From contig JBAXWY010000044.1 of NCBI GenBank assembly GCA_037128175.1, forward strand, positions 1 to 24,191: a DNA stretch of 24,191 nt, written 5' to 3'. Shown here piece by piece: positions 190 to 24,191 of the stretch. This DNA is from Methanothrix sp. (lineage in GTDB: Archaea; Halobacteriota; Methanosarcinia; Methanotrichales; Methanotrichaceae). Numbering within the stretch: the first letter of the stretch is position 1; each line of letters starts with the position of its first letter. Both the position numbers and the translations under genes were made by a program. The notes beneath the pieces are model-generated. The model did no database searches and was not told the DNA's origin. It was given only the letters and a program-made list of their open reading frames with translations.

Positions 190-471
190 TTATTTCTTTT
201 TATAGACCTTATCATGATGGCATAGATCTATAAAAGTCACTTTTTTCTCTATGTCGTTGATTCTAAAGGTCAAAACAAATGATTTCTCAATATGAACTCT
301 TCTTCGTCCCTTTAAATCGTATTTTAATGGCTTATAATGATGCGGATTCTTTGCTATGTCTTCCATCTTCTTGAAAGCAGCTTCGTAGAGTTTTTTGTCT
401 TTTTTATGGGCCTTTTCCAAAAGAGATATCAGCCCTTCTTCTAAACGGTAAACGTAAGATGACACATTCAA
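190..471 (-). CDS. Type II TA toxin, RelE/ParE/YafQ superfamily
   Basis: 93 aa, basic; NPHHYKPLKYDLKGRRRVHI..SFVLTFRI and C-terminal HHDKVY; start overlaps the upstream antitoxin stop (ATGA). Confidence 0.9.
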   Translation of the reverse strand: MNVSSYVYRLEEGLISLLEKAHKKDKKLYEAAFKKMEDIAKNPHHYKPLKYDLKGRRRVHIEKSFVLTFRINDIEKKVTFIDLCHHDKVYKKK

Positions 472-1194: not shown

Positions 1195-2799
1195 CTATGC
1201 CTTTCTCGCCCCAAAGACCTTTTTTAATAGGCCGCTTGCCTTTTTCTCCCCGGGTCTTTTTGTTTTAGCTCCCGCAGGAGACGCGGGGGGAGAGCCTGAT
1301 CTTTTTTCCGCGCCCCGAGAAGCACGCGCTCCCGCTGCAGCGGCTTTCTCTTTGATCACGATCTGGGTGCTCACGCCCCCGTGTCTGGATTTCCTGGGCC
1401 GGATATCGACGGTGATGGGCCTTTCGATCTCATTACTAACCAGCATGGCCACGCCCGCCGGCAGCCTCTTGATCTCTTCCTCCAGATCACCGGTCATTCC
1501 CTCCAGCCCTTTGGAGAGCGCCTTGAGGTCATTGGGATTGGTGACCCTCATAATGATCTGAGTGTTGCACTGAGAGATGACGTTCTTGTCCACACGTGCC
1601 GGTCTCTGGCTGATGATCATCAGCCCCAAGCCAAATTTTCGGCCTTCCGCTGCAATGGTGCGCACAATGCTGGTGGAAGCGGCGTTTCCTGTGCCCCGTT
1701 CCGGGATGTAGTTGTGGGCTTCCTCTACCACCACCATTCCCGGCGAGACCAGCCTGCGCTTTCTGGCCTCAAAGACATCTGTCAAAAGCCGAGATACGAT
1801 CATGGCCTGCAGTTCAGGGAGGATGCCGGTCATGTCGATAACTGCGGCCCTGCCCGGTCGCAAAAGCTCCTCTACCGGCGTCTGTGCTCCCGAGAAAAGC
1901 CCCAACTCCAGGAGCGACTCCAGTTGACCAACTAAATTCCACTTTACCTTGGAATTGCTGCGTACTACCTGTTCGATGACGTCCTCCAGGGTATAGGCAT
2001 CCGTCTCCGCCCGCAGGGCACTGATGGCCTCGTAGAGCAATCCCAGCTGGCCGCTGCTGCTGCTCTCGTGGGGAATCATCTTTGCCACCTCTCGGGCAGA
2101 CATGTTCATTCCGTTAAAGCGAAAAGGCCGGTCGGCTCTCGGGTTCATGGCCATATCTCCCGGTGTGTAGATGGTGGCATCATAACCGCGCGGCTTGACC
2201 TTATATTTGGAAAAGTCCCCCACTTTGTTGGGCTCCTTCATGGAGGCGTACTCGCCATGGGGATCGATGATGAGCAGAGCCACTTTTCTTTCCAGCAGCT
2301 CTTCCAAAATCACAGCAGCCGTATAGGATTTTCCTGAACCGGTCTTGGCGAGGACGCTGCAGTGCTTTTGTACCAGGGTATTGGCGTCCAGCTCCACCCG
2401 GATATCATAGCCCCGCAGCATGCCGATGTACATATCACCCTTGGCCAGGCCGAGAGTTGCCTTGATCAGTTTTTCGTCGGCTATGAAGACCGGATCTCCC
2501 GGCCGGGCAGGACTGGTGGGAAGATGCAGCTTGCCATTGCTTGTCACTCCGATAACCCTGGCCTCGGCTATCATCATCTCTCTAGAATCATAATTTCGGG
2601 CGGCATCATTGAGCTGGTTTACGCTGTAAGCGGAGTTGGACCGTTTGATGTCCTCCACCTGGGCCAGTGCCCATTCCCTCCCGTCGGCTTTGGCCTTGAT
2701 GTAAGTGCCTCTGCCTACCTCTTTGTTTATAATAAACTTAAATGCCAGTGGATTGGTCTCGCCAACAATTGTACCGACCGACCCCTTTGCTATTGACAT
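1195..2799 (-). CDS. HerA-like ATPase (HAS barrel + DUF87/FtsK-HerA ATPase)
   Basis: N-terminal VGTIVG HAS-barrel pattern, Walker A AKTGSGKS, IIDPHGEY, Walker B VVVEEAH, EGRKFGLG, SQRP; GGTGA RBS upstream of ATG 2799. Confidence 0.9.
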   Translation of the reverse strand: MSIAKGSVGTIVGETNPLAFKFIINKEVGRGTYIKAKADGREWALAQVEDIKRSNSAYSVNQLNDAARNYDSREMMIAEARVIGVTSNGKLHLPTSPARPGDPVFIADEKLIKATLGLAKGDMYIGMLRGYDIRVELDANTLVQKHCSVLAKTGSGKSYTAAVILEELLERKVALLIIDPHGEYASMKEPNKVGDFSKYKVKPRGYDATIYTPGDMAMNPRADRPFRFNGMNMSAREVAKMIPHESSSSGQLGLLYEAISALRAETDAYTLEDVIEQVVRSNSKVKWNLVGQLESLLELGLFSGAQTPVEELLRPGRAAVIDMTGILPELQAMIVSRLLTDVFEARKRRLVSPGMVVVEEAHNYIPERGTGNAASTSIVRTIAAEGRKFGLGLMIISQRPARVDKNVISQCNTQIIMRVTNPNDLKALSKGLEGMTGDLEEEIKRLPAGVAMLVSNEIERPITVDIRPRKSRHGGVSTQIVIKEKAAAAGARASRGAEKRSGSPPASPAGAKTKRPGEKKASGLLKKVFGARKA

Positions 2800-3158
2800 C
2801 AACGTCTATCACCGCTAAAGCGTGCCACAAGATCAGTTTTATTTTTCTTTAAATGAATACGAAGTATTGGTGCTTTTTTTCTGGCTATTATTTTGCATCG
2901 CCTTCTTGCTACATTCCCTTTTTTCAATACGTATCTTGAAGTATAAAAAGATTGGTCCAAATGCAAGATGGCCCATTGTAAAGGATATTAATTTAATATA
3001 ATCGTGCACTGAGCTATAAAGCCGCAACTCTTTGCCTTATTATGCTCAACAATTAATTATGCATATTTACTTTTTGTAGTAAAATTGGGGTGATTTGTCA
3101 GGCCTGAGCGAACATTTTAAAAAATAATATTAATTATACGATAGAACAACAGCTGATA

Positions 3159-3821
3159 TTAATATTTTGACGCCCTCATCATCGCCTGCCCGTAAACCAG
3201 TCCAACTAACAGCCCCACGATATGGGCCATATGGGCGATGTTGTCTGCCGAACCTAAGGTCAGGAAATCAATCAGGGCGAATAGCACAACGGCACCACGA
3301 ATGCTCACCGGTATCACGAAGAAGAGCAGTATGCGAATCTCAGGAGCAATCATTGCAAGACAGCCCATCACACCAAATAGAGCTCCGCTCGCTCCCACCA
3401 TGGAGCCGCTAGATATCATCATCTGGCCCAACGCCGCCACTATTCCTGAGAAAATGTAGATCTGCAGGAATTTATTCTCACCCACGCGCCTTTCCAGCTC
3501 CATGCCAAAGAAGAAGAGAAAGAGCATATTCCAGAAGAGGTGGTTGAAGTCGGCATGCACGAACATATGCGTTATGAGCGTCCAGGGCCTTTGCATTACA
3601 TAATCTGGATTTAAAGCCAGGTAGTTGTATACAAAGTTAGGAAAAATGATGCTGATGAAGAATACTACTATGCATGCTAATAATATAAGACCCGAATAGG
3701 TTATGGGCAGCCCGGAAGGTATGTGACTTCTCCAGCCATAGACTGGTTTTTGCGATTCACCCCATTCATCCCGGTATCTGTTGTCCTCCCTTCGAGCGGC
3801 CATGGCCTGAAATGGTTCCAA
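3159..3821 (-). CDS. Rhomboid family intramembrane serine protease
   Basis: PWTLITHMFVHA..HLFWNM, catalytic GASG, AHMAHIVG, multiple TM segments; TTG start with AAGGGAG RBS (ATG 3803 is an alternative). Confidence 0.92.
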   Translation of the reverse strand: MEPFQAMAARREDNRYRDEWGESQKPVYGWRSHIPSGLPITYSGLILLACIVVFFISIIFPNFVYNYLALNPDYVMQRPWTLITHMFVHADFNHLFWNMLFLFFFGMELERRVGENKFLQIYIFSGIVAALGQMMISSGSMVGASGALFGVMGCLAMIAPEIRILLFFVIPVSIRGAVVLFALIDFLTLGSADNIAHMAHIVGLLVGLVYGQAMMRASKY

Positions 3822-3848
3822 TTTAACTCCCTTACAATAATATTATAT

Positions 3849-4343
3849 TTATTCCGGTACATACTGGCCGTTACGAAGAACTATGACATAATCGGCGGAG
3901 TTACGTAGAGCCACTGAGAAGCCGGGCTCCGCTCCGAAGATGATGGTCTCCTTGCCGTGCTCCATAGCTTTCATGAGCACTGGTTTTAAATCGGCATCGC
4001 GGGTGACGAGTGCCAGGGTGTCGATGACGGGATTATAGATCATATCCACACCCTCTACGGCCATTCTCACATCTACGTCGCTGGTGCAGATCACCGGCTC
4101 AAAACCCTGATTTTCCACGGCTTCAACCAGCTTCTCCGAGGCGTACTGATTTAAGAAAACCTTACCCATCTTGATGTCGCCGTAATCCTTGAGGATGTCC
4201 CGGATCTCTTCCAGATCCGTCTGGAACTCCTTTCTGAGCATATTGGGCCCATCTACGAGCAGTCCGATCTTCTTTCTCCCCTTCTCCTTCTTGGAGCCCA
4301 GGTAACTCAAGATATGCTCGAACTGTATTGGCATCCTATTCAT
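3849..4343 (-). CDS. NYN-domain (LabA/DUF88, TIGR00288-like) protein
   Basis: LLVDGPN, DVDVRMAVE, LVTRDAD, LRNSADY motifs of PIN-like NYN nucleases. Confidence 0.88.
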   Translation of the reverse strand: MNRMPIQFEHILSYLGSKKEKGRKKIGLLVDGPNMLRKEFQTDLEEIRDILKDYGDIKMGKVFLNQYASEKLVEAVENQGFEPVICTSDVDVRMAVEGVDMIYNPVIDTLALVTRDADLKPVLMKAMEHGKETIIFGAEPGFSVALRNSADYVIVLRNGQYVPE

Positions 4344-4369
4344 GTTGACCCTTTCTTGGTATGTTTGGA

Positions 4370-5125
4370 TTAGATGTTATAAATTCGTTTGGTATTATCC
4401 GCAGTTATCCGGGCGATTTCTTGCGGCTCTATGCCTCTGATCCTGGCAATGAGCCGAACAGAGTCCGTAACAAACGCGGGTTCATTTCTGCCACTCCGGG
4501 GCGAAAGGAAGGGGCTGTCGGTCTCCACCAGCAGCCGGTCCAGTGATACATTTTTAGCCAGGATCTGGTGTTGTGCGGACCGGCAGAGATTGGTGGCCAG
4601 AGATATATAAAATCCCCTATCAATGGCATCTTTCATAGTCCCGATTGTGCCGCTGTAGCAGTGGAATACGACCTTGTCCAGGTGCTTTACCATTTCCAGA
4701 GCAGGCTGCTCGGCATCGCGGGAATGAATGACCAGAGGCAAATCGAGGGATTTGGCCAGCTCAATGACCCTGCTAAAGACCTTTGCCTGGCGCTCCCTGG
4801 TTGGAGCATCTTTGCAGTGATAGTAGTCCAGCCCCGCCTCACCGATGCCCACGGCCTGGCCAGCATTGTTTTCGATCTGCTTAAAAAGCATATCGAGTTC
4901 CGGCTCTTTTATGCTCTGCAAAGTATTGGGGGAAAGCCCCAGGGTGGCGGATATGAAATCATACTTCTTGGCCAGTTCCAGGGACTTGGCGTTGGTGGAA
5001 TAGTCCACACCCGAGTTGATCATGTGGACCACGCCGGATTTTCGGGCACTGTCCAGTACTGCTTCGCGATCTTTGTTGAACTGCTTGAAATCCAGGTGGC
5101 AATGCGAATCGATTACCCCTTGCAA
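4370..5125 (-). CDS. tatD: TatD family hydrolase/DNase
   Basis: IDSHCHLD, GIGEAGLDY, VIHSR, VFHCYSG, LVETDSPFL, GRNEP. Confidence 0.95.
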   Translation of the reverse strand: MQGVIDSHCHLDFKQFNKDREAVLDSARKSGVVHMINSGVDYSTNAKSLELAKKYDFISATLGLSPNTLQSIKEPELDMLFKQIENNAGQAVGIGEAGLDYYHCKDAPTRERQAKVFSRVIELAKSLDLPLVIHSRDAEQPALEMVKHLDKVVFHCYSGTIGTMKDAIDRGFYISLATNLCRSAQHQILAKNVSLDRLLVETDSPFLSPRSGRNEPAFVTDSVRLIARIRGIEPQEIARITADNTKRIYNI

Positions 5126-18120: not shown

Positions 18121-18240
18121 AACATTTGACTTTGGCCTGCAGTCCAGTCTTGTTCCGTAACCGTCATTTTCGTCTTGTCCCCCACGGCTTTGAAGTAGAA
18201 CTACCTGCAAGAAAATAGATATACTAGAAGGAGATTGGCA

Positions 18241-18315
18241 ATGAAGGCATCAAGTGGCATATACCAGGCGGCTCGGACGGCCCTAGATATCGAAACCCTG
18301 GTCCGCGGCAGATGA
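18241..18315 (+). CDS. Putative small protein, 24 aa (MKASSGIYQAARTALDIETLVRGR)
   Basis: GAAGGAG RBS at 18227-18233; first of three closely packed small ORFs. Confidence 0.3.
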   Translation: MKASSGIYQAARTALDIETLVRGR

Positions 18316-18319
18316 TGAT

Positions 18320-18406
18320 ATGGCTGACAAAAACCGAAGCCCAGGCAAAAGCAAAAAAGCGATGACAAAAAAGGCAAAGCTAAAAAAGAAGGAAGTGAAA
18401 TCATGA
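18320..18406 (+). CDS. Putative small Lys-rich protein, 28 aa (MADKNRSPGKSKKAMTKKAKLKKKEVKS)
   Basis: Starts 4 nt after the previous stop; its stop overlaps the next start (ATGA). Confidence 0.4.
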   Translation: MADKNRSPGKSKKAMTKKAKLKKKEVKS

Positions 18407-18540
18407 GTGAAGCTAGAGACAGGAAAATGAAACGCGAGCGCAGATTCGAAATGCAAAAGGCCGAAAAAGTCTTGCGAGCGTGCAGGAGCAGGAGAGGCTA
18501 TGAGCTCTTTCAAGAGCCAGAGAAAAAAAAGCCAAAATAG
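18403..18540 (+). CDS. Putative small basic protein, 45 aa (MSEARDRKMKRERRFEMQKAEKVLRACRSRRGYELFQEPEKKKPK)
   Basis: AAGGAAGTGA RBS-like sequence, ATGA coupling, followed by a T-run terminator. Confidence 0.45.
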   Translation: MSEARDRKMKRERRFEMQKAEKVLRACRSRRGYELFQEPEKKKPK

Positions 18541-18579
18541 GAGCGAGAGGGGCGATTTGGGCGGCTCTTCTTTTTTTTT
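18541..18579 (+). terminator. GC-rich stretch plus T9 terminator
   Basis: GAGC...GCTC followed by TTCTTTTTTTTT immediately after the small ORFs. Confidence 0.5.
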
Positions 18580-18742
18580 GCTGATTACTTTCGCCTCGCA
18601 TTTGTCAATTTTTAATGGCATTAGTCTTTCAGGCTCCGAAGTTCGTTAGGGACAGCCAGTGCAAGCTCAAACTGCGAGTTAGCGTTCCAAATGTCTCTGG
18701 CCGGCCTTCCGGCGCTCGCAGGCCCGCCTGGTCTGAGTAGAC

Positions 18743-18802
18743 CAAACATCAAGGAAATATAATCGTCGATGAGATATAGACATTTTCTTCGCATGGTTTA
18801 GA
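18743..18802 (-). repeat. Orphan duplicate of the hicB promoter and start codon
   Basis: 54/60 nt identical to 20787-20846 by manual alignment. Confidence 0.85.
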
Positions 18803-18844
18803 CCACAGCTCGTGTCTGCCGTCCGGTGGCTAGCGTCGCCGCTT

Positions 18845-19160
18845 GCCAGGCGGGCCCGCATGTGCACGCGCTCGCACTCGGGCGCGGGAGGCCGGTCGGG
18901 CCTGGAGTCAGGGAGAGCCGGGCCAGAGGGAACAGCTTTTCGGGCGCTGGATTTTGGTAATCGCGGCATTTCGTTATTACTATCAGCGGATAATTATAAC
19001 CAGACAACTAACGATTTCACCACAAAGGCACGAAGGCACAAAGAACGCGCAAAGAGATTCGAGACCGTTCTCCTGGCTTAGCGATCCTTGCGGGGCTGTG
19101 GGTAGCAGCGCCCGTTTGCCGCTCGACTGTGGCTGCCCGGCAAGCAGGGCTGCGTTCGTG
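18845..19160. repeat. Mosaic GC-rich repeat block 1 (modules D-K-B-H-partial A)
   Basis: Core K GGAGGCCGGTCGGGCCTG at 18887-18904; 18845-18904 is identical to 24067-24126; B, H and A modules align with the other blocks. Confidence 0.9.
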
Positions 19161-19190
19161 ACTCGCATCACGATATCTCAATTATGCACG

Positions 19191-19601
19191 CTAAATCAAT
19201 TGCACATTAAATGAAGAATTAGCTTTATTGTACAGTTTCTTATCCAAAGTCAATAGAGGGACTTGCTCTTTTTCTGCCAGGGCTAAAAAGAGGGAATCAT
19301 AAAAGGACGCTGTAGTAACAATCGAAATATCATACGCCTTCGCCATCATATCCTGCGCTCTGACGACATCGCACGCTTCGGAGATAAAGGTCTGACATTT
19401 CTGCAGAGCATTGAGAGTTTGATCCCGGTCCTTCCCGAATAGAGTCACCTGTTTCCAGGCGACGTTTCCAACCTCAATCACTGCCAGGTCCAGAGTGATC
19501 AAATCCGGTTTGGTGACTGCGTCCAGGGCTCTTTGAGAGGCATTCTCCTTGAAAAACATAGCTGCCAGGATATTTGAATCCAAAGCTACCTTATCAAGCA
19601 T
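19191..19601 (-). CDS. vapC: VapC PIN-domain toxin
   Basis: VALDSN, IEVGNVAWK, SFYDSLFLALA, LLTLDKKL acidic PIN residues; overlaps the antitoxin end. Confidence 0.92.
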   Translation of the reverse strand: MLDKVALDSNILAAMFFKENASQRALDAVTKPDLITLDLAVIEVGNVAWKQVTLFGKDRDQTLNALQKCQTFISEACDVVRAQDMMAKAYDISIVTTASFYDSLFLALAEKEQVPLLTLDKKLYNKANSSFNVQLI

Positions 19602-19818
19602 CTCGATCCTCCCGTATCATCTGTGCAGCACCGATTGCATTGGGCTTTTGATGCTTCCACAGTTCCTGAGCCTCGGCCAGGAGCCTTTCTTTTTTCTTTT
19701 CCCGAACCATTCTCTCCACGGTTTGCTTGATCTCTCCCTGCCAATTGACATCAGACATCTCATCCATCATCCTGCGTACACGGTCTTCAATGCGAACGCT
19801 ATAAACAGAAGTTGACAT
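19594..19818 (-). CDS. vapB: VapB-type antitoxin (ribbon-helix-helix-like)
   Basis: MSTSVYSVRI beta-ribbon, VNWQGEIK, AAQMIREDRDA ending; TATA TTATATAC about 23 nt upstream favours ATG 19818. Confidence 0.85.
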   Translation of the reverse strand: MSTSVYSVRIEDRVRRMMDEMSDVNWQGEIKQTVERMVREKKKERLLAEAQELWKHQKPNAIGAAQMIREDRDA

Positions 19819-19924
19819 ACAATGATGTTTATCCAAAAAGTATATAAGATTTTTCTGCAGCTCCCCCCCCTCTGCCCATCACCAGCACATCTTCGCCTCG
19901 GGCAGCGCTCGTTCCAGCCGCCCT

Positions 19925-20362
19925 TGGGCCGGGCCCGCACGCTCGCGCTCGGGGGTCGGGAGGCCGGGCGGGCCTGAAGGCCAGGAAGAGCCGGGCCGGA
20001 GTAGACAGCTTTTCGGGGGGCTGGATTTTGGTAACGGCGGCATTTCGTTATTACTATTAGCCGATAATTATAACCGAGCTACTACGGGCCACCACAAGAG
20101 GCACAGAGCGCACAGAGGACGCACAGAGACTTTTTAAAAGGATTTCTCGGCAGCCTCCAGCATCTTCATCCTTGCGGGGATGTGGGCAACAGCGCCCGGT
20201 TGCCGCTCGACTGTGGCTGCCCGGCAAGCAGGGCTGCGCTCGTGGCAGCTGCCCGTGGGCCGGGCCGTCCGGGCTTGCGGCGATGTTGTCAGGGAGGGCA
20301 GGAGGCCGGTCGGGCCTGAGGGCCAGGTGGAACTGGACTCCTGCCAAAGTGACTTCTCCGGG
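19925..20362. repeat. Mosaic GC-rich repeat block 2 (partial D-K-B-H-A-K-degenerate B)
   Basis: K at 19959-19976 (1 mismatch) and 20301-20318 (exact); CACAGAG tandem at about 20089-20130. Confidence 0.9.
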
Positions 20363-20546
20363 TAGAACCTTCTTAATGAGGTCAACGCTAACGTCTTCGC
20401 CATGGTGTGGATTGGGAATGAGCAAGAATATTCCATCCTTGCGCATGTACGGATGCTTCTTGCCGGAAAATGGTCCATCCCATCCCAGATTGTTGAGACG
20501 CCCGAGTCAGCTCGTGCCATGAAACTGGTACGAATTTAGTCTGCAA
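20363..20546 (-). pseudogene. hicA: HicA toxin, frameshifted and 3-prime truncated
   Basis: TTG 20546 gives QTKFVPVSWHELTR; removing one base at the C3 run 20501-20503 continues RLNNLGWDGPFSGKKHPYMRKDGIFLLIPNPHHGEDVSVDLIKKVL, which then runs into the repeat with no native stop. Confidence 0.85.
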
Positions 20547-20793
20547 AGGCCATCGGCTCCTTCGAGACTTGTATCATATGACCTTCGAGAGACGGGACCG
20601 GGTAGCCCCACGCCAGATGCGCTGCTATCCAGTCTTCAAGGGCATCTATGAGGTTCTTTCGACATTCATCAAGAGTTTTTCCTGTTGCCCACAGTCCTTG
20701 AAGCTCAAGGACCTCGCCGTAAAATGGCTCTGCGTCATCGATGATCTCGTAAGTCGCCTTATCCATTGCAGCCTGAATATATTCAGCAAACAT
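20536..20793 (-). CDS. hicB: HicB family antitoxin
   Basis: MFAEYIQAAM..A.YE, FYGEV.EL.GLWATGKTLDECR.NL.DALEDW; start trimmed to ATG 20793. Confidence 0.9.
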   Translation of the reverse strand: MFAEYIQAAMDKATYEIIDDAEPFYGEVLELQGLWATGKTLDECRKNLIDALEDWIAAHLAWGYPVPSLEGHMIQVSKEPMAFAD

Positions 20794-20850
20794 CAGAGAA
20801 ATATAATCGTCGATGGGATATAGACTTTTTTTTCGCATGGTGTAGATCGT

Positions 20851-20919
20851 TGCCAGTGGGCCGGGCCGTCCGGGCTTGCTGCGATGTTGTCAGGGCGGAC
20901 TGGAGGCCGGTCGGGCCTG
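20851..20919. repeat. Mosaic repeat block 3 (partial A-K)
   Basis: TGCCAGTGGGCCGGGCCGTCCGGGCTTGCTGCGATGTTGTCAGGGCGG matches about 22935-22982; exact K at 20902-20919. Confidence 0.9.
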
Positions 20920-20943
20920 GCATCTGGTGGAGATGATGGCGAA

Positions 20944-21228
20944 TTAGTAGACTTCGTTGTGCGTGCCAACAGCTTCAAGCAGGATGATCTCTTCTTGAGT
21001 CTTGGGATCTCGCACGAACTCAAATACGATGCGATATTCGAAATCGACCGTAAAAGCCCAAGAACCTGCCAAGTCCCCTTTCAATTTGTGAGTATGAAGA
21101 GAGAAGTGTTGTGGATCAGTAGCGAGCAGTTTTAGTGCATGTTCAATTCTTTCTTGCAGATCAGGCCTGCGTCGTATTAAGTGCTTGAATGATCTTTTGA
21201 AGCCAGGGCTCCAGACAAGAGTATTCAA
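20944..21228 (-). CDS. RelE/YafQ-family mRNA interferase toxin
   Basis: WSPGFKRSFK, LHTHKLKGDLAGSW, YRIVF, VGTHNEVY; TTG start overlaps the antitoxin TGA. Confidence 0.9.
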   Translation of the reverse strand: MNTLVWSPGFKRSFKHLIRRRPDLQERIEHALKLLATDPQHFSLHTHKLKGDLAGSWAFTVDFEYRIVFEFVRDPKTQEEIILLEAVGTHNEVY

Positions 21229-21449
21229 TCTAACAGATCCTTCATCAGGTCTTCAAATGTGCCCCGTTTAACCTCGCCTCTTTTAAACGCACCTCTCGCA
21301 TCCTGGACTTCAGCTACCAGCTCGGCCCGGCGCTTCTCTATGATGCGTTTGTTGATCAGCTCGACCAGCATGGACTGATCTTCCAGAGGCATGGACTCCA
21401 CAGCTTCGATTAGATCCTGAAAACTCAATGAATGCACTGCACCGCTCAT
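21225..21449 (-). CDS. Cognate antitoxin (74 aa)
   Basis: Small helical protein directly upstream of and overlapping the toxin; ends GTFEDLMKDLLD. Confidence 0.82.
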   Translation of the reverse strand: MSGAVHSLSFQDLIEAVESMPLEDQSMLVELINKRIIEKRRAELVAEVQDARGAFKRGEVKRGTFEDLMKDLLD

Positions 21450-21536
21450 TAAAATGCACCTTTTTGGGATTCCAGATTGCTGTTTAAGGAATTTAACCTT
21501 TGGGTCTTGCTGTCCAATTCATCATCCATTGATAGC

Positions 21537-21641
21537 TTTGCCCGGCTTCCGGCTGCACTCGTGGCCGCCGTCGTTGGGGCCGGGCCATCCGGGGTTGCTG
21601 CGTGGTCGTCAGGGCGGGCAGGAGGCCGGTCGGGCCTGAGG
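21537..21641. repeat. Mosaic repeat block 4 (partial A-K)
   Basis: TTGCCCGGCTTCCGGCTG shared with about 22903-22920; exact K at 21621-21638, 5 nt from the HEPN stop codon. Confidence 0.9.
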
Positions 21642-21643
21642 GT

Positions 21644-21973
21644 TTATATTAATATTTTCGCCAGTTTTAATTTTATCTCTGGAAGCTCATTTTTAAGGGC
21701 ATCATTCACGATCTCCCAGTCCACTCCAAAGTAATGGTGAACCAGCTTGTTTCTCATGCCGATCATCTGTCTCCATGGAATCTCTGGGTGCGCCTTTCTC
21801 AAATCATCCGAGATATTCCTGGATGCCTCTCCAATAATCTCCAAGGATTTAACACAGGCTCTGCGTAGAACTTCATCTGCCATCAACGTCTCTATGCCAA
21901 CGACAGCACAATACGTTGCAATGAAATCCATCTCTTCAAGGATGTGTCCCAGTAGCTCTCCATCCTTATTCAG
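21644..21973 (-). CDS. hepT: HepT/DUF86 HEPN ribonuclease toxin
   Basis: LEIIGEA, PEIPW, RNKLVHHY (RX4HXY); frame open upstream of ATG 21931 to a CTG at 21973 (would give 109 aa). Confidence 0.88.
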   Translation of the reverse strand: MNKDGELLGHILEEMDFIATYCAVVGIETLMADEVLRRACVKSLEIIGEASRNISDDLRKAHPEIPWRQMIGMRNKLVHHYFGVDWEIVNDALKNELPEIKLKLAKILI

Positions 21974-22247
21974 ACCAGATCACATCCTTCTCCACGTAAG
22001 GCCGGATGCGCGGGTGAAGTCCTTTTACGGTGACCAGATCCACCTCTCTTTCCAAGAGATCTTCCAGGTAGAATGAAAGGTTCATAAAGTTTTTAAATGT
22101 GGGCTTCTCAAATTCTACCAGTATATCAACATCGCTGGAATCCTTCTGCTCACCACGGGCGAAGGATCCGAAAATACCAATTCGCCTGACGCTAAAAAGG
22201 GTCTTGATATCATTGGCGTGGCTCTTGATAAGGTCGATGATCTCCAT
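21966..22247 (-). CDS. mntA: MntA minimal nucleotidyltransferase antitoxin
   Basis: GSFARGEQKDSSDVD is an exact GSX10DXD; LEDLLEREVDLVT. Confidence 0.92.
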   Translation of the reverse strand: MEIIDLIKSHANDIKTLFSVRRIGIFGSFARGEQKDSSDVDILVEFEKPTFKNFMNLSFYLEDLLEREVDLVTVKGLHPRIRPYVEKDVIWSE

Positions 22248-22375
22248 ATTCTATCCGGCATTTTATAGGCTTTACAACTCTAAAAACATTGCTATTTGCA
22301 GGACAAAAATTGCAGGTCGATCTCAACGCAGTTGTAAACGAGAGATAAGCAACTCTTCGTGAGCTTTCCGTCCGC

Positions 22376-23135
22376 GGGCCCAGCCTGGGCCGCGCTGTCG
22401 TCCTGGCGGGCTGGCTTGCCTGACAAGCGCTTGCGCCCGGGGCGGGAGGCCCGGTCGGGCCGAGATCACGGGTTCACGCGAAGGCGCTATAGGCGCGAAG
22501 TTCCGATGAGAAAGGATAATTTTTTCGCCAGAGCTCTCGGGCCGCGTCGGTGGAGCCGTTTCTCGGCAAAGGCCATCCGGGGACAATGGCGCCGTTAGCC
22601 AGGCGGGCCTGCATGTGCCTGCGCTCGCGCTCAGGGGCAGGGGGCCGGTCGGGCCTGAAGGCCAGGGAGAGCCGGGCCGGAGTAGACAGCTTTTCGGGTG
22701 GCTGGATTTTGGTAACGGCGGCATTTCGTTATTACTATTAGCCGATAATTATAACCATACAACTAACGATTTCACCACAGAGACACAGAGCGCACAGAGG
22801 ACGCACAGAGACTTTTAAAAACAATTCCAGGCAGTCTCCAGCATCGTTATCCTTGCGGTGCTGTGTGCAGCAGCGTCCGTCAGCCGTTCGACCGTGGCTG
22901 CCTTGCCCGGCTTCCGGCTGTGCTCGTGGCATGCTGCCAGTGGGCCGGGCCGTCCGGGCTTGCTGCGATGTTGTCAGGGCGGGCTGGCTTGCCTGACAAG
23001 CGATCGTGCTGGTAGGCGGGAGGCCTGTCGGGCCTGGTGGCCAGGAAGAGTTGGCGTTCGGCTGAGACAGCATCTCCGGAGAGGATGGATGGAGAAGATA
23101 GCAGTAGCTGTTATTATTCGCAGATAATTATGACT
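22376..23135. repeat. Mosaic repeat block 5 (longest; about 2.5 diverged monomers)
   Basis: K variants at 22445-22462, 22640-22657 and 23019-23036; C module 22462-22595; B 22658-22756; four CACAGAG at about 22776-22810; degenerate B 23037-23135. Confidence 0.9.
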
Positions 23136-23143
23136 TAATACTT

Positions 23144-23445
23144 TTATTTTTTCTCAATACGCACATACTTCTTATGCGCCTGTTCGATAGTTCCGAGCCA
23201 TAGAATTCTTACAATCTTTTCGTCTTGGGAAACACGATAAAAAGCAGTATATGATCGGGAAATATGCAATCTATAGAGATCATCATGCTTTGAAGATCGA
23301 AGCAACTCTTTGTCGCCGCCTTTTCCGGGAAATGGGTCGCTTTCGAGAATCCGGAGCTTGGTTTTGGCTATCTCATTGCTTTTTTGGGAAGCTTATCCAG
23401 AAACTCCTGTGCATCTTCATCTATCAGCACACAAAAGTTTACCAT
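23144..23445 (-). pseudogene. RelE/ParE-family toxin with a 1-nt frameshift (absent from the ORF track)
   Basis: ATG 23445 gives MVNFCVLIDEDAQEFLDKLPKK; adding one A to the A6 run (plus-strand T 23380-23385) continues SNEIAKTKLRILESDPFPGKGGDKELL...LYRLHISRSYTAFYRV...TIEQAHKKYVRIEKK*, 100 aa in total. Confidence 0.85.
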
Positions 23446-23726
23446 TTCATCGCCACAAACTTGCCCCTTTTCTCAATGCGGTCCATATCCTCAAATAACC
23501 GCCGCTTTTTTTCTCTCTCAATCATCTCCGCCAAGAGGTGATCGTAAGTCTCTCCTGCACTCTTAAGACCTGACAGCTCTTCCCAGACGGCTCTTGATAC
23601 GGGAATGCGGCTGGTAGCGGGCATCTTCTCGGTCACATGCATGTTTTTTGGCAGTATTTCTTGGGCAGTGCTATCTCCATGCTCCGGAACCGGCCTGACT
23701 TCAACCTCGCCACTGATTTTGGCCAT
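23439..23726 (-). CDS. Antitoxin (archaeal RelB/ribbon-helix-helix-like)
   Basis: TSRIPVSRAVWEELSGLKSAGETYDHLLAEMIE; overlaps the toxin start; TATA-like AAATATAT about 25 nt above ATG 23726 (ATG 23624 is an alternative). Confidence 0.8.
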   Translation of the reverse strand: MAKISGEVEVRPVPEHGDSTAQEILPKNMHVTEKMPATSRIPVSRAVWEELSGLKSAGETYDHLLAEMIEREKKRRLFEDMDRIEKRGKFVAMKW

Positions 23727-23800
23727 AGTAGCTCTGTAAGGATTGTAAGTAGATATATTTTGTGTTTCTATTGGGCCACGGCATTTCATTCATGGAAAGA

Positions 23801-24191
23801 CAGCAGCGCCCGGCTGCCGCTCGACTGTGGTCGCTGCCTTGCCCGATGTCCCGGCTGCGCTCGTGCCTGCCCATGTGGGCCCAGCCTAGGCGGCGATGTC
23901 GTCAGGGAGGGCAGGAGTGCCGGTCGGGCTGAGATCACGGGTTCACGCGAAGGCGCTATAGGCGCGAAGTTCCGATGAGAGAAGGACAATTTTTCGCCAG
24001 AACCCTCGGGCCGCATCGGTGGAGTCGTTTCTTGGCAAAGGCCATCCAGAGACAATGGCGCCGTCCGCCAGGCGGGCCCGCATGTGCACGCGCTCGCACT
24101 CGGGCGCGGGAGGCCGGTCGGGCCTGAGGGCCAGGAAGAGCCGGGCCGGAGTAGACAGCTTTTCGGGTGGCTGGATTTTGGTAACGGCGGC
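23801..24191. repeat. Mosaic repeat block 6 (A-K-C-D-K-B), runs off the window edge
   Basis: 23914-24191 is colinear with about 22445-22722; K at 23914-23931 (variant) and 24109-24126 (exact). Confidence 0.9.

Follow-up and report, generated by a model that had tools for sequence, protein, structure and literature searches.

Toxin–antitoxin cassettes alternate with lineage-specific mosaic repeats at a chromosomal hotspot of Methanothrix

How do several unrelated toxin–antitoxin (TA) modules come to stand in a row on an archaeal chromosome, each divided from the next by copies of one repeat, and does a dedicated system move them? The locus that raises this question lies in a Methanothrix MAG (G000), on a contig of 24,191 nucleotides whose entire length is the window analysed here. 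A first-pass annotation had described five TA modules separated by a repeat, and had suggested a gene-capture platform or a repeat acting as a TA landing pad. The observation itself was confirmed. Searching the window with up to 3 mismatches, we found 8 matches to the 18-nt core of the repeat, GGAGGCCGGTCGGGCCTG, between 18887 and 24109 and all on the plus strand, against 0.06 expected by chance; 8 matches were reached in 0 of 100 shuffles. Ten copies had been announced. Five are exact (18887, 20301, 20902, 21621 and 24109) and three carry one mismatch (19959, 22640 and 23019); the variants at 22445 and 23914 are visible in the sequence but were missed by the mismatch search because each contains an inserted base.

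The five modules, all on the minus strand as annotated, comprise VapBC, HicB next to a broken HicA, one RelE/StbE pair, MntA-HepT and a RelE-like pair that is degenerate. They match Pfam or NCBIfam families, weakly for the last pair. The array is organized as follows (R1 to R6, repeat copies; D numbers, direct-repeat families).

18616–18802, minus strand: hicBA remnant, hicB 5′ end and promoter region joined to the cassette 3′ flank by an internal deletion
18803–19165, plus strand: R1, C-type module ending in core 18887–18904, then C-tail, AT, CAC-like and F
19191–19836, minus strand: vapBC cassette
19191–19601, minus strand: vapC (PIN), Pfam PIN 41.8 bits
19594–19836, minus strand: vapB, NCBIfam VapB 76.4 bits (cut-off 60)
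19837–20330, plus strand: R2, vapB promoter-side module with core 19959, then one 'empty' core-to-core unit (C-tail, AT, CAC, F, B) ending in core 20301
20331–20838, minus strand: hicBA cassette
about 20331–20546, minus strand: hicA pseudogene, frameshifted, 3′ end absent
20536–20838, minus strand: hicB (UPF0150), Pfam UPF0150 100.6 bits
20839–20943, plus strand: R3, short-form B module ending in core 20902–20919 (D2), the minimal inter-cassette spacer
20944–21534, minus strand: relE-type cassette, promoter region to about 21534
20944–21228, minus strand: RelE/StbE-family toxin, NCBIfam RelE_StbE 35.5 bits (cut-off 27.9), Pfam YafQ/ParE matches
21225–21449, minus strand: antitoxin of the relE-type cassette, 74 aa, unclassified
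21535–21643, plus strand: R4, F-tail and short B module ending in core 21621–21638
21644–22367, minus strand: mntA-hepT cassette, promoter region to about 22367
21644–21931, minus strand: hepT, Pfam HepT-like 92 bits
21966–22247, minus strand: mntA, Pfam NTP_transf_2 60 bits
22368–23143, plus strand: R5, long B with core variant 22445, X, C with core 22640, then C-tail, AT, CAC, F, long B with core 23019 and tail (D1, D6)
23144–23789, minus strand: degenerate RelE-like pair
23144–23392, minus strand: RelE-like toxin, weak match, no start codon before in-frame stops
23439–23789, minus strand: DUF7557-like antitoxin, weak DUF7557 match
23790–24191, plus strand: R6, F, B (core variant 23914), X, C (core 24109), C-tail and start of AT

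The count of five cassettes overlooked a sixth, the internally deleted hicBA at 18616–18802. The 60 nt at 18743–18802 are 90% identical to the start of hicB at 20787–20846 (D12), the intact cassette of G043 has the same 3′-flank motif as the remnant, and positions 18616–18900 are 98.6% identical to the syntenic place in G012. The hicA gene had been called truncated; its 3′ end is indeed absent, but the gene is frameshifted as well. The intact HicA of G043 has 75 aa and its DNA is 97% identical to the window copy, in which alignment reveals a broken frame and a deletion of about 110 nt. The last pair, annotated as RelBE-type, stands as a weakly matching RelE-like pair but is degenerate, its toxin having lost the start; the homologous pair of G016 has an intact toxin N-terminus. 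The distances given from toxin stop to core (5 nt for hepT, 24 nt for relE) are correct, and the cassettes are AT-richer than the repeats, as had been remarked (GC fraction 0.45–0.50, against repeat bins of up to 0.59–0.62). A TATA-like box, read from the sequence only, lies upstream of vapB, and every cassette appears to have its own promoter.

A same-orientation repeat in every gap was borne out by the direct-repeat families D1–D14. The repeat is a mosaic of modules: B (76–77 nt or about 103–112 nt) and C, a C-tail, an AT-rich module with a TATA-like box (AT), a CACAGAG module (CAC) and F. B, long-B and C modules all terminate at their 3′ side in the core, which is the best-conserved block in all module types, with much less conserved flanks; it contains an inverted pair, AGGCC-N5-GGCCT, whose arms are only 5 bp long. 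Repeat copies are strictly intergenic and G-rich on one strand. 'Empty' core-to-core units of about 345–400 nt coexist with units whose centre is a TA cassette instead, and the phase of such a 'unit' is arbitrary since the modules are tandemly mosaic. Direct-repeat analysis of the window detected no terminal inverted repeats or target-site duplications bounding GC modules or units, and the repeat displays no conserved hairpin, significant stem-loop or covariation. R6, which is 90% identical to 22440–22722 (D1), meets the contig end; as the window is the whole contig, the array runs off it, in agreement with the annotated continuation past 24191.

The locus is a chromosomal hotspot where TA cassettes alternate with lineage-specific mosaic repeats. 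A flavodoxin-like gene borders the array on one side. The array of G012 is syntenic with the window on both flanks, and this synteny places the far boundary in G000:C11 at about 69029, beside genes reading as ilvB, ilvN and ilvC (names from translations). At the syntenic site, G000 has at least five cassettes and G012 a set that differs in part, whereas G042 has only about 790 bp of repeat; the repeats are located at the synteny break between G000 and G042. B modules with the core were found in 32 of the 58 other genomes of the genus, and in none of 46 genomes from 15 sister genera.

Cassettes of the window recur at about 83–98% identity, in other orders, in at least 12 related genomes, and are co-oriented with the repeats in every mapped array. 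The vapBC cassette is 93–98% identical in G012, G059, G057, G043, G061 and G006, the relE block 83–96% identical in nine other mapped loci, with ends conserved in most, and mntA-hepT 80–98% identical in 11 other mapped loci. To the left of relE stands hicBA in G000, mntA-hepT in G041 and vapBC in G043:C25; G016 has the 'last' pair there, and G043:C39 and G059 have a hicB paralogue. The switch of neighbour falls in the repeat, mostly at or adjoining the core, and homology between genomes breaks at repeats. Cassette order thus varies with its joints in the repeats, as the annotation had anticipated and as we found across many species of the genus; the repeats therefore mark reshuffling joints.

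Could these orders be chimeric joins caused by the repeats during assembly or binning? All compared genomes are MAG-type assemblies, the window contig ends inside a repeat, and run contigs break at repeats and have ambiguous joints because they come from repeats and other strains. The repeat is also present on two short contigs whose bins are bacterial or belong to another archaeon, which points to mis-binning. However, differing orders occur in genomes of 1, 6, 10 and 30 contigs (G057, G012, G061 and G059, respectively), and the G012 array retains synteny on both flanks. In runs X1 and X3, which stem from different studies, independent contigs of 1612 nt (relE-R4-mntA-hepT) are identical and reproduce 20869–22480 with zero differences. 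The shortest spacers (76–110 nt) are moreover shorter than a typical read length. We consider an artefact of this kind highly improbable.

Each cassette family has its own fixed toxin-side junction to the core, the entry points lying 0, +4, +16, +75 and +115 nt after it. The core is 5 nt from the mntA-hepT cassette in all six instances having a core, and 57–63 nt from relE in 6 of 10. On the promoter side, the distance to the next core is variable (69 to 365 nt), and the module between the promoter and that core does not travel with the cassette. The same variant of the vapBC promoter-side module is followed by C-tail in G000 and by relE in G043:C25, with the switch exactly after the core. On neither side of the cassettes did B-module variants co-segregate with the family (0.66 vs 0.66). 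Recombinant-looking pairs switched close to the core in 105 of 122 and 82 of 105 cases, within a range constrained by the test, and within-genome homogenisation of B modules was not found in a small sample (p 0.26).

From these comparisons, it may well be that cassettes are reshuffled by homology-driven recombination between co-oriented mosaic repeats, an explanation that we hold with middling confidence. Each cassette family would have inserted a single time into a repeat unit, at a point of its own, and would later have been moved, lost, duplicated or exchanged via the flanking co-oriented repeats. Two direct repeats could loop out the DNA between them, deleting or excising it; a cassette could re-enter, or gene conversion take place, at any further copy of the repeat; and Methanothrix lineages could exchange DNA. 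The general homologous or short-homology recombination machinery of the cell would suffice, with no dedicated integrase. If this is true, recombination between flanking repeats would make them portable homology for TA cassettes, at once landing pad and shuffling joint. Homology is favoured over a site-specific enzyme because of the lack of co-segregation, the variable promoter-side distances, the family-specific entry points, the absence of a conserved hairpin and of a recombinase near arrays, and the position of the repeats at the G000/G042 synteny break. Against it, the homology available to exchange is short and diverged (76–110 nt at about 66–90% identity) and switches cluster at the core, a pattern that a site-specific crossover would equally give. 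The conservation of the core above its flanks is unexplained by homology-driven exchange. The lack of B-module homogenisation in the small sample, the 48 of 61 TA modules of this genome that have no GC-module repeat within 1 kb, and the homologous cassettes with a core-less repeat or none also count against it.

In a rival reading, a dedicated and undescribed site-specific system would be at work: a recombinase whose gene lies elsewhere in the genome would cross over at the core, at the toxin-side end of every cassette, and would cut cassettes out and put them back from core to core, CALIN-like, without a linked integrase. Such a system would agree with the conservation and 3′ position of the core, the neighbour switches at or adjoining it and the strictly uniform orientation. 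Cassette sizes (0.5–0.7 kb) and spacers of 76–110 nt are presumably close to those of integron cassettes with attC. Cassettes are also often more similar between species than the flanking chromosomal genes (91–93% vs 73% in G060, 92–95% vs 83% in G016), which hints at lateral exchange. However, no attC motif or hairpin, R″/R′ motif pair, covariation or dif-like site is present, as the annotation had already noted for attC and dif. No recombinase adjoins the arrays examined, with no tyrosine recombinase near arrays in 6 genomes. Among the 58 genomes of the genus, neither Y1 transposases (27/32 repeat-positive vs 19/26 repeat-negative genomes) nor IS110 (19/32 vs 17/26, and none in G000) co-occurred with the repeat. 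Cassette-specific sequence starts 0 to 115 nt past the core, according to the family, the promoter-side module stays behind, and G067 carries an array of the same kind in which the core is absent. We regard such a system as unlikely. The proposal of a dedicated capture platform is not upheld by these data, nor by the predominance of TA modules that have no repeat nearby and the cassettes with a core-less repeat or none; a landing pad combined with shuffling through the repeats is a better fit than an integron-like machine.

It is also conceivable, if rather unlikely, that the association is incidental, selfish MITE/REP-like repeats piling up where insertions are tolerated, such as gap-rich TA islands, and order differences reflecting ordinary island turnover in which repeats are not causal. 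The CAC module indeed belongs to a MITE-like palindromic element with about 87 copies over 38 contigs, often at contig ends. Repeat fragments occur on 36 contigs, most TA modules lack the repeat, and TnpB or IS110 genes are found near some arrays. Homologues of the cassettes exist with a core-less relative of the repeat in G067 and without any repeat in G017:C2; repeats are therefore not needed for cassettes to exist. Core-bearing GC modules, in contrast, are few and form 13 clusters, 7 of which lie within 700 bp of a TA-family match, whereas random placement gave 0.62 on average and never more than 4 (2000 trials). For 11 of the 61 TA modules, likewise, the nearest GC-module repeat is at most 300 bp away, compared with 1.6% of random segments. 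As the annotation implied, the repeat clusters beside TA genes instead of being scattered at random, both here and in relatives. GC modules are not bounded by terminal inverted repeats, and independent turnover would not yield both homology breaks exactly at repeats and co-orientation in every mapped array.

Homology-driven reshuffling invites comparison with known systems. Integron arrays and CALINs (e.g. the Vibrio superintegron with its near-identical VCR/attC sites) similarly have co-oriented 76–110 nt repeats between small cassettes, many TA cassettes with apparent promoters of their own, and a lineage-specific repeat with cassette order and content variable between relatives. TA genes make up 10.5% of the functionally annotated cassettes of archaeal integrons according to a paper from whose main text Methanothrix is absent (PMC9668308). 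Unlike integrons, the Methanothrix arrays lack R″/R′ core motifs, an imperfect-palindrome hairpin, covariation and a nearby IntI or other tyrosine recombinase; junction position depends on the family and the repeat does not move with the cassette. An integron was rejected on these grounds.

BIMEs (REP clusters of enterobacteria) and NIMEs (dRS3/RS arrays of Neisseria) flank exchangeable cassettes, the 'minimal mobile elements'. The Methanothrix repeats resemble them as variable mosaics of short conserved units, strictly intergenic and lineage-specific, which sit at recombination joints or synteny breaks and could provide portable homology for cassette exchange. They differ by their archaeal host, longer units, G-richness on one strand and lack of a significant stem-loop. 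As opposed to the alternating REPs of BIMEs, array copies all point one way, and no RAYT-like Y1 transposase tracks them. To our knowledge, BIMEs have not been described as tightly linked to TA cassettes. The pdif modules of Acinetobacter plasmids are gene modules, including TA pairs, bounded by 28-bp XerC/D sites in inverted orientation. Like our arrays, they consist of small modules that include TA pairs, have a short repeated site at their boundaries and turn up in varied contexts, whereas the Methanothrix cores all have the same orientation, 5-bp inverted arms and a chromosomal location. MITEs and mobile insertion cassettes are non-autonomous elements with conserved ends and sometimes passenger genes. 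The 'empty' units beside TA-filled ones and the module shared with the palindromic element recall them, but the Methanothrix units have no terminal inverted repeats or target-site duplications, no matching transposase was found, and their phase is arbitrary.

A census of 117 ORFs inside 11 other repeat clusters (4 of this genome, 7 of relatives) gave PIN (9), UPF0150 (6), DUF4258 (5), HicA (5) and MqsA (4) as the commonest Pfam families, followed by UPF0175, DUF3368, ParE and PhdYeFM (3 each). An IS605 TnpB gene lies beside the G012 array, and IS110 genes occur in G015:C56, within about 250 bp of the closest mapped repeat, and in G060:C24, about 2 kb past the last one mapped. Mobile DNA thus gathers in these islands.

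The G000 assembly comprises 2.96 Mb in 98 contigs, one of which (C44, 24,191 bp) is the entire window. The 18-nt core of the repeat, GGAGGCCGGTCGGGCCTG, was matched eight times at up to three mismatches between 18887 and 24109, always on the plus strand; 0.06 matches were expected by chance and eight were reached in 0 of 100 shuffles. Two more copies (22445 and 23914), which carry one extra base, were read from the sequence and complete the ten copies counted in the first-pass annotation. Repeat finding and self-comparison located pieces of one mosaic repeat family in every gap among the minus-strand genes, and module names (B, C, X, F, AT and CAC) were assigned from alignments. Family scans of these genes, together with the repeat search, bear out the earlier description of five minus-strand toxin-antitoxin (TA) modules with repeat in every gap, and a sixth cassette remnant was recognized by repeat comparison and alignment.

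Cassettes of the array in the window
minus strand, pair 1 (vapBC): PIN with VapB
minus strand, pair 2 (hicBA): UPF0150/HicB with a HicA remnant
minus strand, pair 3 (relE pair): RelE_StbE-family toxin with an upstream 74-aa ORF
minus strand, pair 4 (mntA-hepT): NTP_transf_2/MntA with HepT
minus strand, pair 5 ("last"): weak RelE-like remnant with a DUF7557-like ORF
18616-18802: remnant of a sixth cassette, hicBA with an internal deletion

The pairs are predicted from their sequences to be adjacent small antitoxin and toxin genes of known type II or type VII TA families. Two of the five toxins, hicA and the last RelE-like gene, are broken. The 3' truncation of hicA had already been noticed and holds, and its frame is also disrupted, a feature missing from the earlier account; an intact 75-aa HicA is present in a relative, and the alignment shows a deletion of about 110 nt in the window copy. 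The last toxin has in-frame stops at positions where a relative has the N-terminus. A small ORF starting MPPLPKSS, in the AT and C-tail modules, was rejected as coding, its frame differing among copies, and no Rfam family matched the window at gathering thresholds. In the 18.6 kb that precede the array, the ten largest ORFs are ordinary chromosomal genes, among them a SpoIIE-type phosphatase, a permease, peptidases and a flavodoxin-like protein, as well as a minus-strand row (1195-5125) of a HerA-like ATPase (DUF87 and HAS barrel), a rhomboid protease, an NYN-domain protein and a TatD DNase. An extra ParE-family toxin match (202-402, minus strand, 28.4 bits) lies at the contig start, 18 kb from the array, with no repeat adjoining.

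The association between repeat and TA genes extends beyond the window. Seven TA Pfam families mapped over the whole G000 genome gave 79 matches, merged into 61 modules. Eleven of the 61 lie within 300 bp of a GC-module repeat (the GC-rich modules with the core), compared with 1.6% of random 500-bp segments, and 48 have no such repeat within 1 kb. Seen from the side of the repeat, seven of 13 clusters are located at most 700 bp from a TA match; random placement, repeated 2000 times, put 0.62 clusters there on average and never more than 4. One of the six other clusters is the opposite end of this same array, on contig C11, and another adjoins a paralogue of the DUF7557-like antitoxin. The enrichment of the repeat beside TA genes is real, and the tie between the two proposed in the first-pass annotation stands. 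We also scanned 117 ORFs lying between repeats in 11 further clusters (four in G000, seven in relatives), a mechanical list that includes some spurious frames. The commonest families were PIN (9), UPF0150 (6), DUF4258 (5), HicA (5) and MqsA (4), followed by UPF0175, DUF3368, ParE and PhdYeFM (3 each); non-TA genes were few (IS21 IstB, a beta-lactamase-fold protein and an acylphosphatase).

The repeat is specific to this lineage. In an exact-match scan of one genome per species, the core occurred in multiple copies only in records labelled Methanothrix, Methanotrichaceae or "Methanosarcinales archaeon". Single matches in GC-rich bacteria (Actinomycetota and others) were dismissed as chance, the four that were checked having nothing else in common with G000. 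A 621-nt repeat block matched 18 of 18 sampled genomes of the genus and, weakly, one of 12 outside it; this query included the AT and CAC modules, which are widespread. Narrower in distribution, the core-bearing B module was present in 32 of the 58 other Methanothrix genomes and absent from all 46 genomes that represented 15 further genera of the family. Within G000, repeat fragments are found on 36 contigs and the core, at up to two mismatches, in 30 copies on 10 contigs, mostly clustered (eight on C44, seven on C14, four on C17 and three on C51). Several or all of the Methanothrix repeat modules are also carried by three short contigs binned to Syntrophomonadaceae, Candidatus Methanofastidiosum and Syntrophorhabdaceae (loci L034, L054 and L079), which are probably mis-binned. 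L034 and L054 have identical match tables at a constant 36-nt offset and probably hold one and the same sequence.

We compared the array with its counterparts in related genomes. Both G042 (93%) and G012 (94%) retain the flank as far as 18615-18623. The G012 array occupies the syntenic place and shares with G000 the hicB remnant (98.6%) and vapBC (91.6% in one alignment, 98% over the cassette), then carries other cassettes (HicBA, MqsA-DUF4258 and others). Its far flank matches C11 of G000 (65345-68132) at 97%, so that the G000 array spans the end of C44 and the end of C11; the C11 flank holds ilvB, ilvN, ilvC and a 177-aa ORF before the terminal repeat, the names being taken from translations. 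In G012 an IS605 OrfB/TnpB gene of 324 aa, absent from G000, stands between the conserved flank and the first cassette (L011, contig C3, 10434-11408). In G042 the flank is followed by only about 790 bp of repeat, and beyond it by sequence that in G000 adjoins a different, oppositely oriented repeat copy on C11 (39264-39439), at a distance of 30 kb. A simple inversion was rejected, synteny breaking again 2 kb further on; by alignment, the repeat sits at a synteny break between the two genomes.

The unique parts of the window array were then searched against 58 genomes of the genus. Cassettes recur as separate blocks, at identities of 85-97% for hicBA, 83-96% for the relE pair, 80-98% for mntA-hepT and 93-98% for vapBC. 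The first-pass annotation had proposed a comparison of cassette order between strains, and orders do differ across the genus, for example in G041, G059 and G016. Cassettes and repeats lie on one strand in every mapped array.

Cassette order in arrays of Methanothrix genomes
G000: vapBC, hicBA, relE, mntA-hepT, last
G041: hicBA, mntA-hepT, relE
G043, contig C39: relE, hicBA
G043, contig C25: cut mntA joined directly to vapBC, then relE
G059: relE, vapBC, mntA-hepT
G057: vapBC, mntA-hepT, relE further on
G016: last, relE
G001: hicBA, mntA-hepT

Misassembly is an unlikely source of this variation because differing orders occur in genomes of 1, 6, 10 and 30 contigs and because positions 20869-22480 of the window are reproduced exactly by independent contigs of two studies. 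Some sequencing runs contain 83-92% of the sequence words of the array. Contigs from such runs contain joints that link repeat copies (for example 19046 to 22773 and 20136 to 24101) and may stem from other copies or strains. Cassettes are often more similar to those of G000 than flanking chromosomal genes are, as in G060 (91-93% versus 73%), G016 (92-95% versus 83%) and G059 (93-96% versus 85%), a comparison with one flank rather than genome-wide that suggests lateral exchange of cassettes within the genus. In an RNA run (X15), contigs at 90-99% identity cover three of the cassettes (hicBA, the relE pair and mntA-hepT), which hints weakly at best at their expression in a relative.

The joints between cassettes and repeats were read from alignments of each cassette family with its flanks. 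On the toxin side, the start of cassette-specific sequence is fixed within each family, the first family-specific base falling 0, +4, +16, about +75 or about +115 nt, depending on the family, into what is otherwise C-tail/AT sequence. The core is 5 nt away in all six mntA-hepT instances that have one, 35-37 nt away in three of seven vapBC instances, and 57-63 nt away in six of ten relE instances, with a variant at 104-112 nt; in the window, a deletion has brought it to 1 nt from relE. On the promoter side, 69 to 365 nt separate the cassette from the next core, and the join to the F and B modules varies by family. The core is kept while the sequence past it changes among genomes. For instance, one promoter-side module of vapBC continues into C-tail in G000 and into a relE tail on contig C25 of G043, the switch falling directly after ...GGGCCTG. 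Among 288 unique core sites, 122 pairs have the right flank in common but not the left, with 105 of the 122 switch points within -26 to +3, and 105 pairs show the reverse, with 82 of the 105 within +15 to +36. The way pairs were selected allowed switch points only between about -30 and +45 nt, and within the shared core their exact position is masked, so this clustering near the core cannot distinguish site-specific from homology-driven crossover. B modules are conserved in primary sequence, most strongly in the core, and measure 76-77 nt (25 of 72) or about 101-114 nt (41 of 72). On neither side do their variants go with particular cassette families (mean identity 0.66 for the same family, 0.66 or 0.65 for different ones). 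Concerted evolution of B modules within genomes found no support: modules from one genome were more alike by 0.034 (permutation p 0.26), in an underpowered test on 27 modules aligned without gaps. Gene-free core-to-core units of about 345-400 nt also occur.

The simplest account of these observations is homology-driven exchange via co-oriented repeats, to which we give about an even chance. A lineage-specific mosaic repeat would occupy TA islands, and each cassette family would have entered a repeat unit once, at its own point. Co-oriented repeats on either side could then act as portable homology, through which general homologous or short-homology recombination would delete, duplicate and reinsert cassettes and exchange them between arrays and species. 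Uniform orientation, family-specific joints on the toxin side and free assortment of repeat variants would follow from such a process, as would empty units, cassette decay and the synteny break. Left unexplained by this account is the conservation of the symmetric core (AGGCC-N5-GGCCT), which is much stronger than that of the rest of the repeat.

That feature leaves room for a dedicated exchange system, in which a putative recombinase with its gene elsewhere would cut and rejoin DNA at the 18-nt site found 3' of each TA cassette. Arrays of this kind would resemble integrons in capturing and reordering small cassettes, TA pairs and others, and in passing them from species to species, yet would have neither attC hairpins nor IntI. 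A protein binding or cutting the symmetric core is conceivable, but several results make such a system improbable. No integrase is linked to the arrays: the six PF00589 matches of G000 all lie off the core-cluster contigs (C44, C11, C14, C19, C51 and C17), none was found within 20 kb of mapped arrays in G057, G012, G043, G059 or G061, and there is no recombinase among the ten largest ORFs upstream of the array, in agreement with the first-pass statement that the window contains none. The same annotation had seen no attC site, and none came to light. RYYYAAC (R'') and GTTRRRY (R') pairs 40-130 nt apart were absent from both strands of the whole window, and the four single RYYYAAC matches in the array lie in cassettes, three in coding sequence (21228, 21266 and 21847) and one in the promoter region of the relE pair (21491). 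Four spacers folded as DNA, each on both strands, had z-scores of -2.4 to +1.25, one of eight being below -1. For the B modules (29 short, 43 long), consensus folding yielded covariation terms of about zero, with an energy of 0 for the minus strand of the long form.

The core is also dispensable for cassette arrays. In G067, where no B/core match was found, homologues of mntA, hicBA and the relE-pair antitoxin lie within 3.2 kb and are separated by two related units of about 350 nt (L161, contig C21, about 2200-2560 and 3370-3730). These units consist of AT and CAC modules and a B-like body, without core and without C-tail, and look like a sister or ancestral form of the repeat. In G017 a hicBA homologue stands alone among housekeeping genes (contig C2). 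Since the G067 array is core-less and the G017 hicBA is solitary, the link between TA cassettes and the repeat superfamily is older and wider than the core, and cassettes can do without it. The earlier reading stands in part: shuffling, and the repeat as a landing pad, are retained, whereas nothing demonstrates a dedicated gene-capture platform, no recombinase lying by the arrays examined and the attC searches being negative. A third possibility, that selfish repeats have incidentally accumulated in a permissive island, seems to us about as unlikely as a dedicated system.

As in integrons and CALINs, small cassettes lie between co-oriented sites and vary in order and content among relatives, but attC boxes, a conserved hairpin and an adjacent tyrosine recombinase are lacking. 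An adjacent integrase is a feature of complete integrons only, CALINs being without it. Moreover, attC sites are kept in structure rather than in sequence, whereas the B module is kept in primary sequence. In orientation, the array departs from pdif/Xer modules, whose sites alternate: all eight cores in the window are on the plus strand, and repeats are on one strand per mapped array. Like REP/BIME elements, the repeat is intergenic, a modular mosaic, present in many copies and lineage-specific. Unlike them, its core has only a 5-bp inverted pair with no significant fold, and the RAYT (Y1) transposases associated with REP/BIME neither adjoin it in G000 nor track it among genomes. As for MITEs, the GC modules have no flanking inverted repeat and no empty site came to light, while copies of the CACAGAG sub-module throughout the genome form a palindromic element. 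We file the arrays as mosaic intergenic repeats acting as recombination joints, integron-like in layout but not integrons by the searches for attC and recombinase. The accessible parts of the literature on Methanothrix/Methanosaeta mobile elements, repeats and pangenome and on archaeal TA cassette shuffling contain no description of this repeat or its arrays. Nor does the accessible text of the archaeal integron paper (PMC9668308), whose supplements may list Methanothrix attC matches.

One clade of the genus thus keeps TA cassette arrays that are joined by its own mosaic repeat and reshuffled, with cassettes probably exchanged between species. Few acetate-using methanogens matter more in wetlands, lakes and digesters than Methanothrix species, whose mobile DNA is, to our knowledge, little described. 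Should ordinary recombination make the joints, the arrays would clearly exemplify in an archaeon how repeats supply portable homology for the turnover of accessory genes, much as in bacterial BIME/NIME systems; should a dedicated enzyme recognize the core, they would represent a gene-cassette platform of a new kind, distinct from integrons. Because the repeats break assemblies and cause mis-binning, the TA and defence content of Methanothrix MAGs is probably undercounted.

Other mobile DNA was examined around the repeats. No inverted repeat flanks the GC modules, the region having only two inverted pairs, neither of which bounds a unit. The hypothesis that the repeats are IS200/IS605 ends was rejected: none of the 15 TnpB and five TnpA matches in G000 adjoins a repeat, the nearest being 1.3 kb away and most more than 10 kb. 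Y1 genes never adjoin repeats in G000, and neither Y1 transposases (27 of 32 repeat-positive versus 19 of 26 repeat-negative genomes) nor IS110 transposases (19 of 32 versus 17 of 26, none in G000) co-occur phylogenetically with the repeat. Genes for IS110-family (DEDD) transposases were observed about 250 bp from the nearest mapped repeat in G015 (C56:16241-16672) and about 2 kb past the last mapped repeat in G060 (C24:6356-6784). Some members of this family target repeats such as REP and attC.

The CACAGAG module is present in about 87 copies on 38 contigs of G000. Most form a palindromic MITE-like element, in which GGTTATAACC stands between inverted CTCTGTG/CACAGAG arms and the last bases of a conserved tail read ...GCGAGGAACC; examples are C1:5226, C2:122, C18:20508, C41:9310 and C8:77533. 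Since its copies are nearly identical and lie at many contig ends, this element has probably been active recently and breaks the assembly. Two stretches of the window are related to it:

22766-22812: module related to the MITE-like element
20084-20130: module related to the MITE-like element

Finally, a 493-bp stretch between the flavodoxin-like gene and the array (18131-18623) is duplicated in G059 about 3 kb apart, together with the tail of the flavodoxin-like gene (L142, contig C7, 2331-2821 and 5307-5797), and occurs at other places in G001 and G043. To judge from these positions, it behaves as a further movable block.
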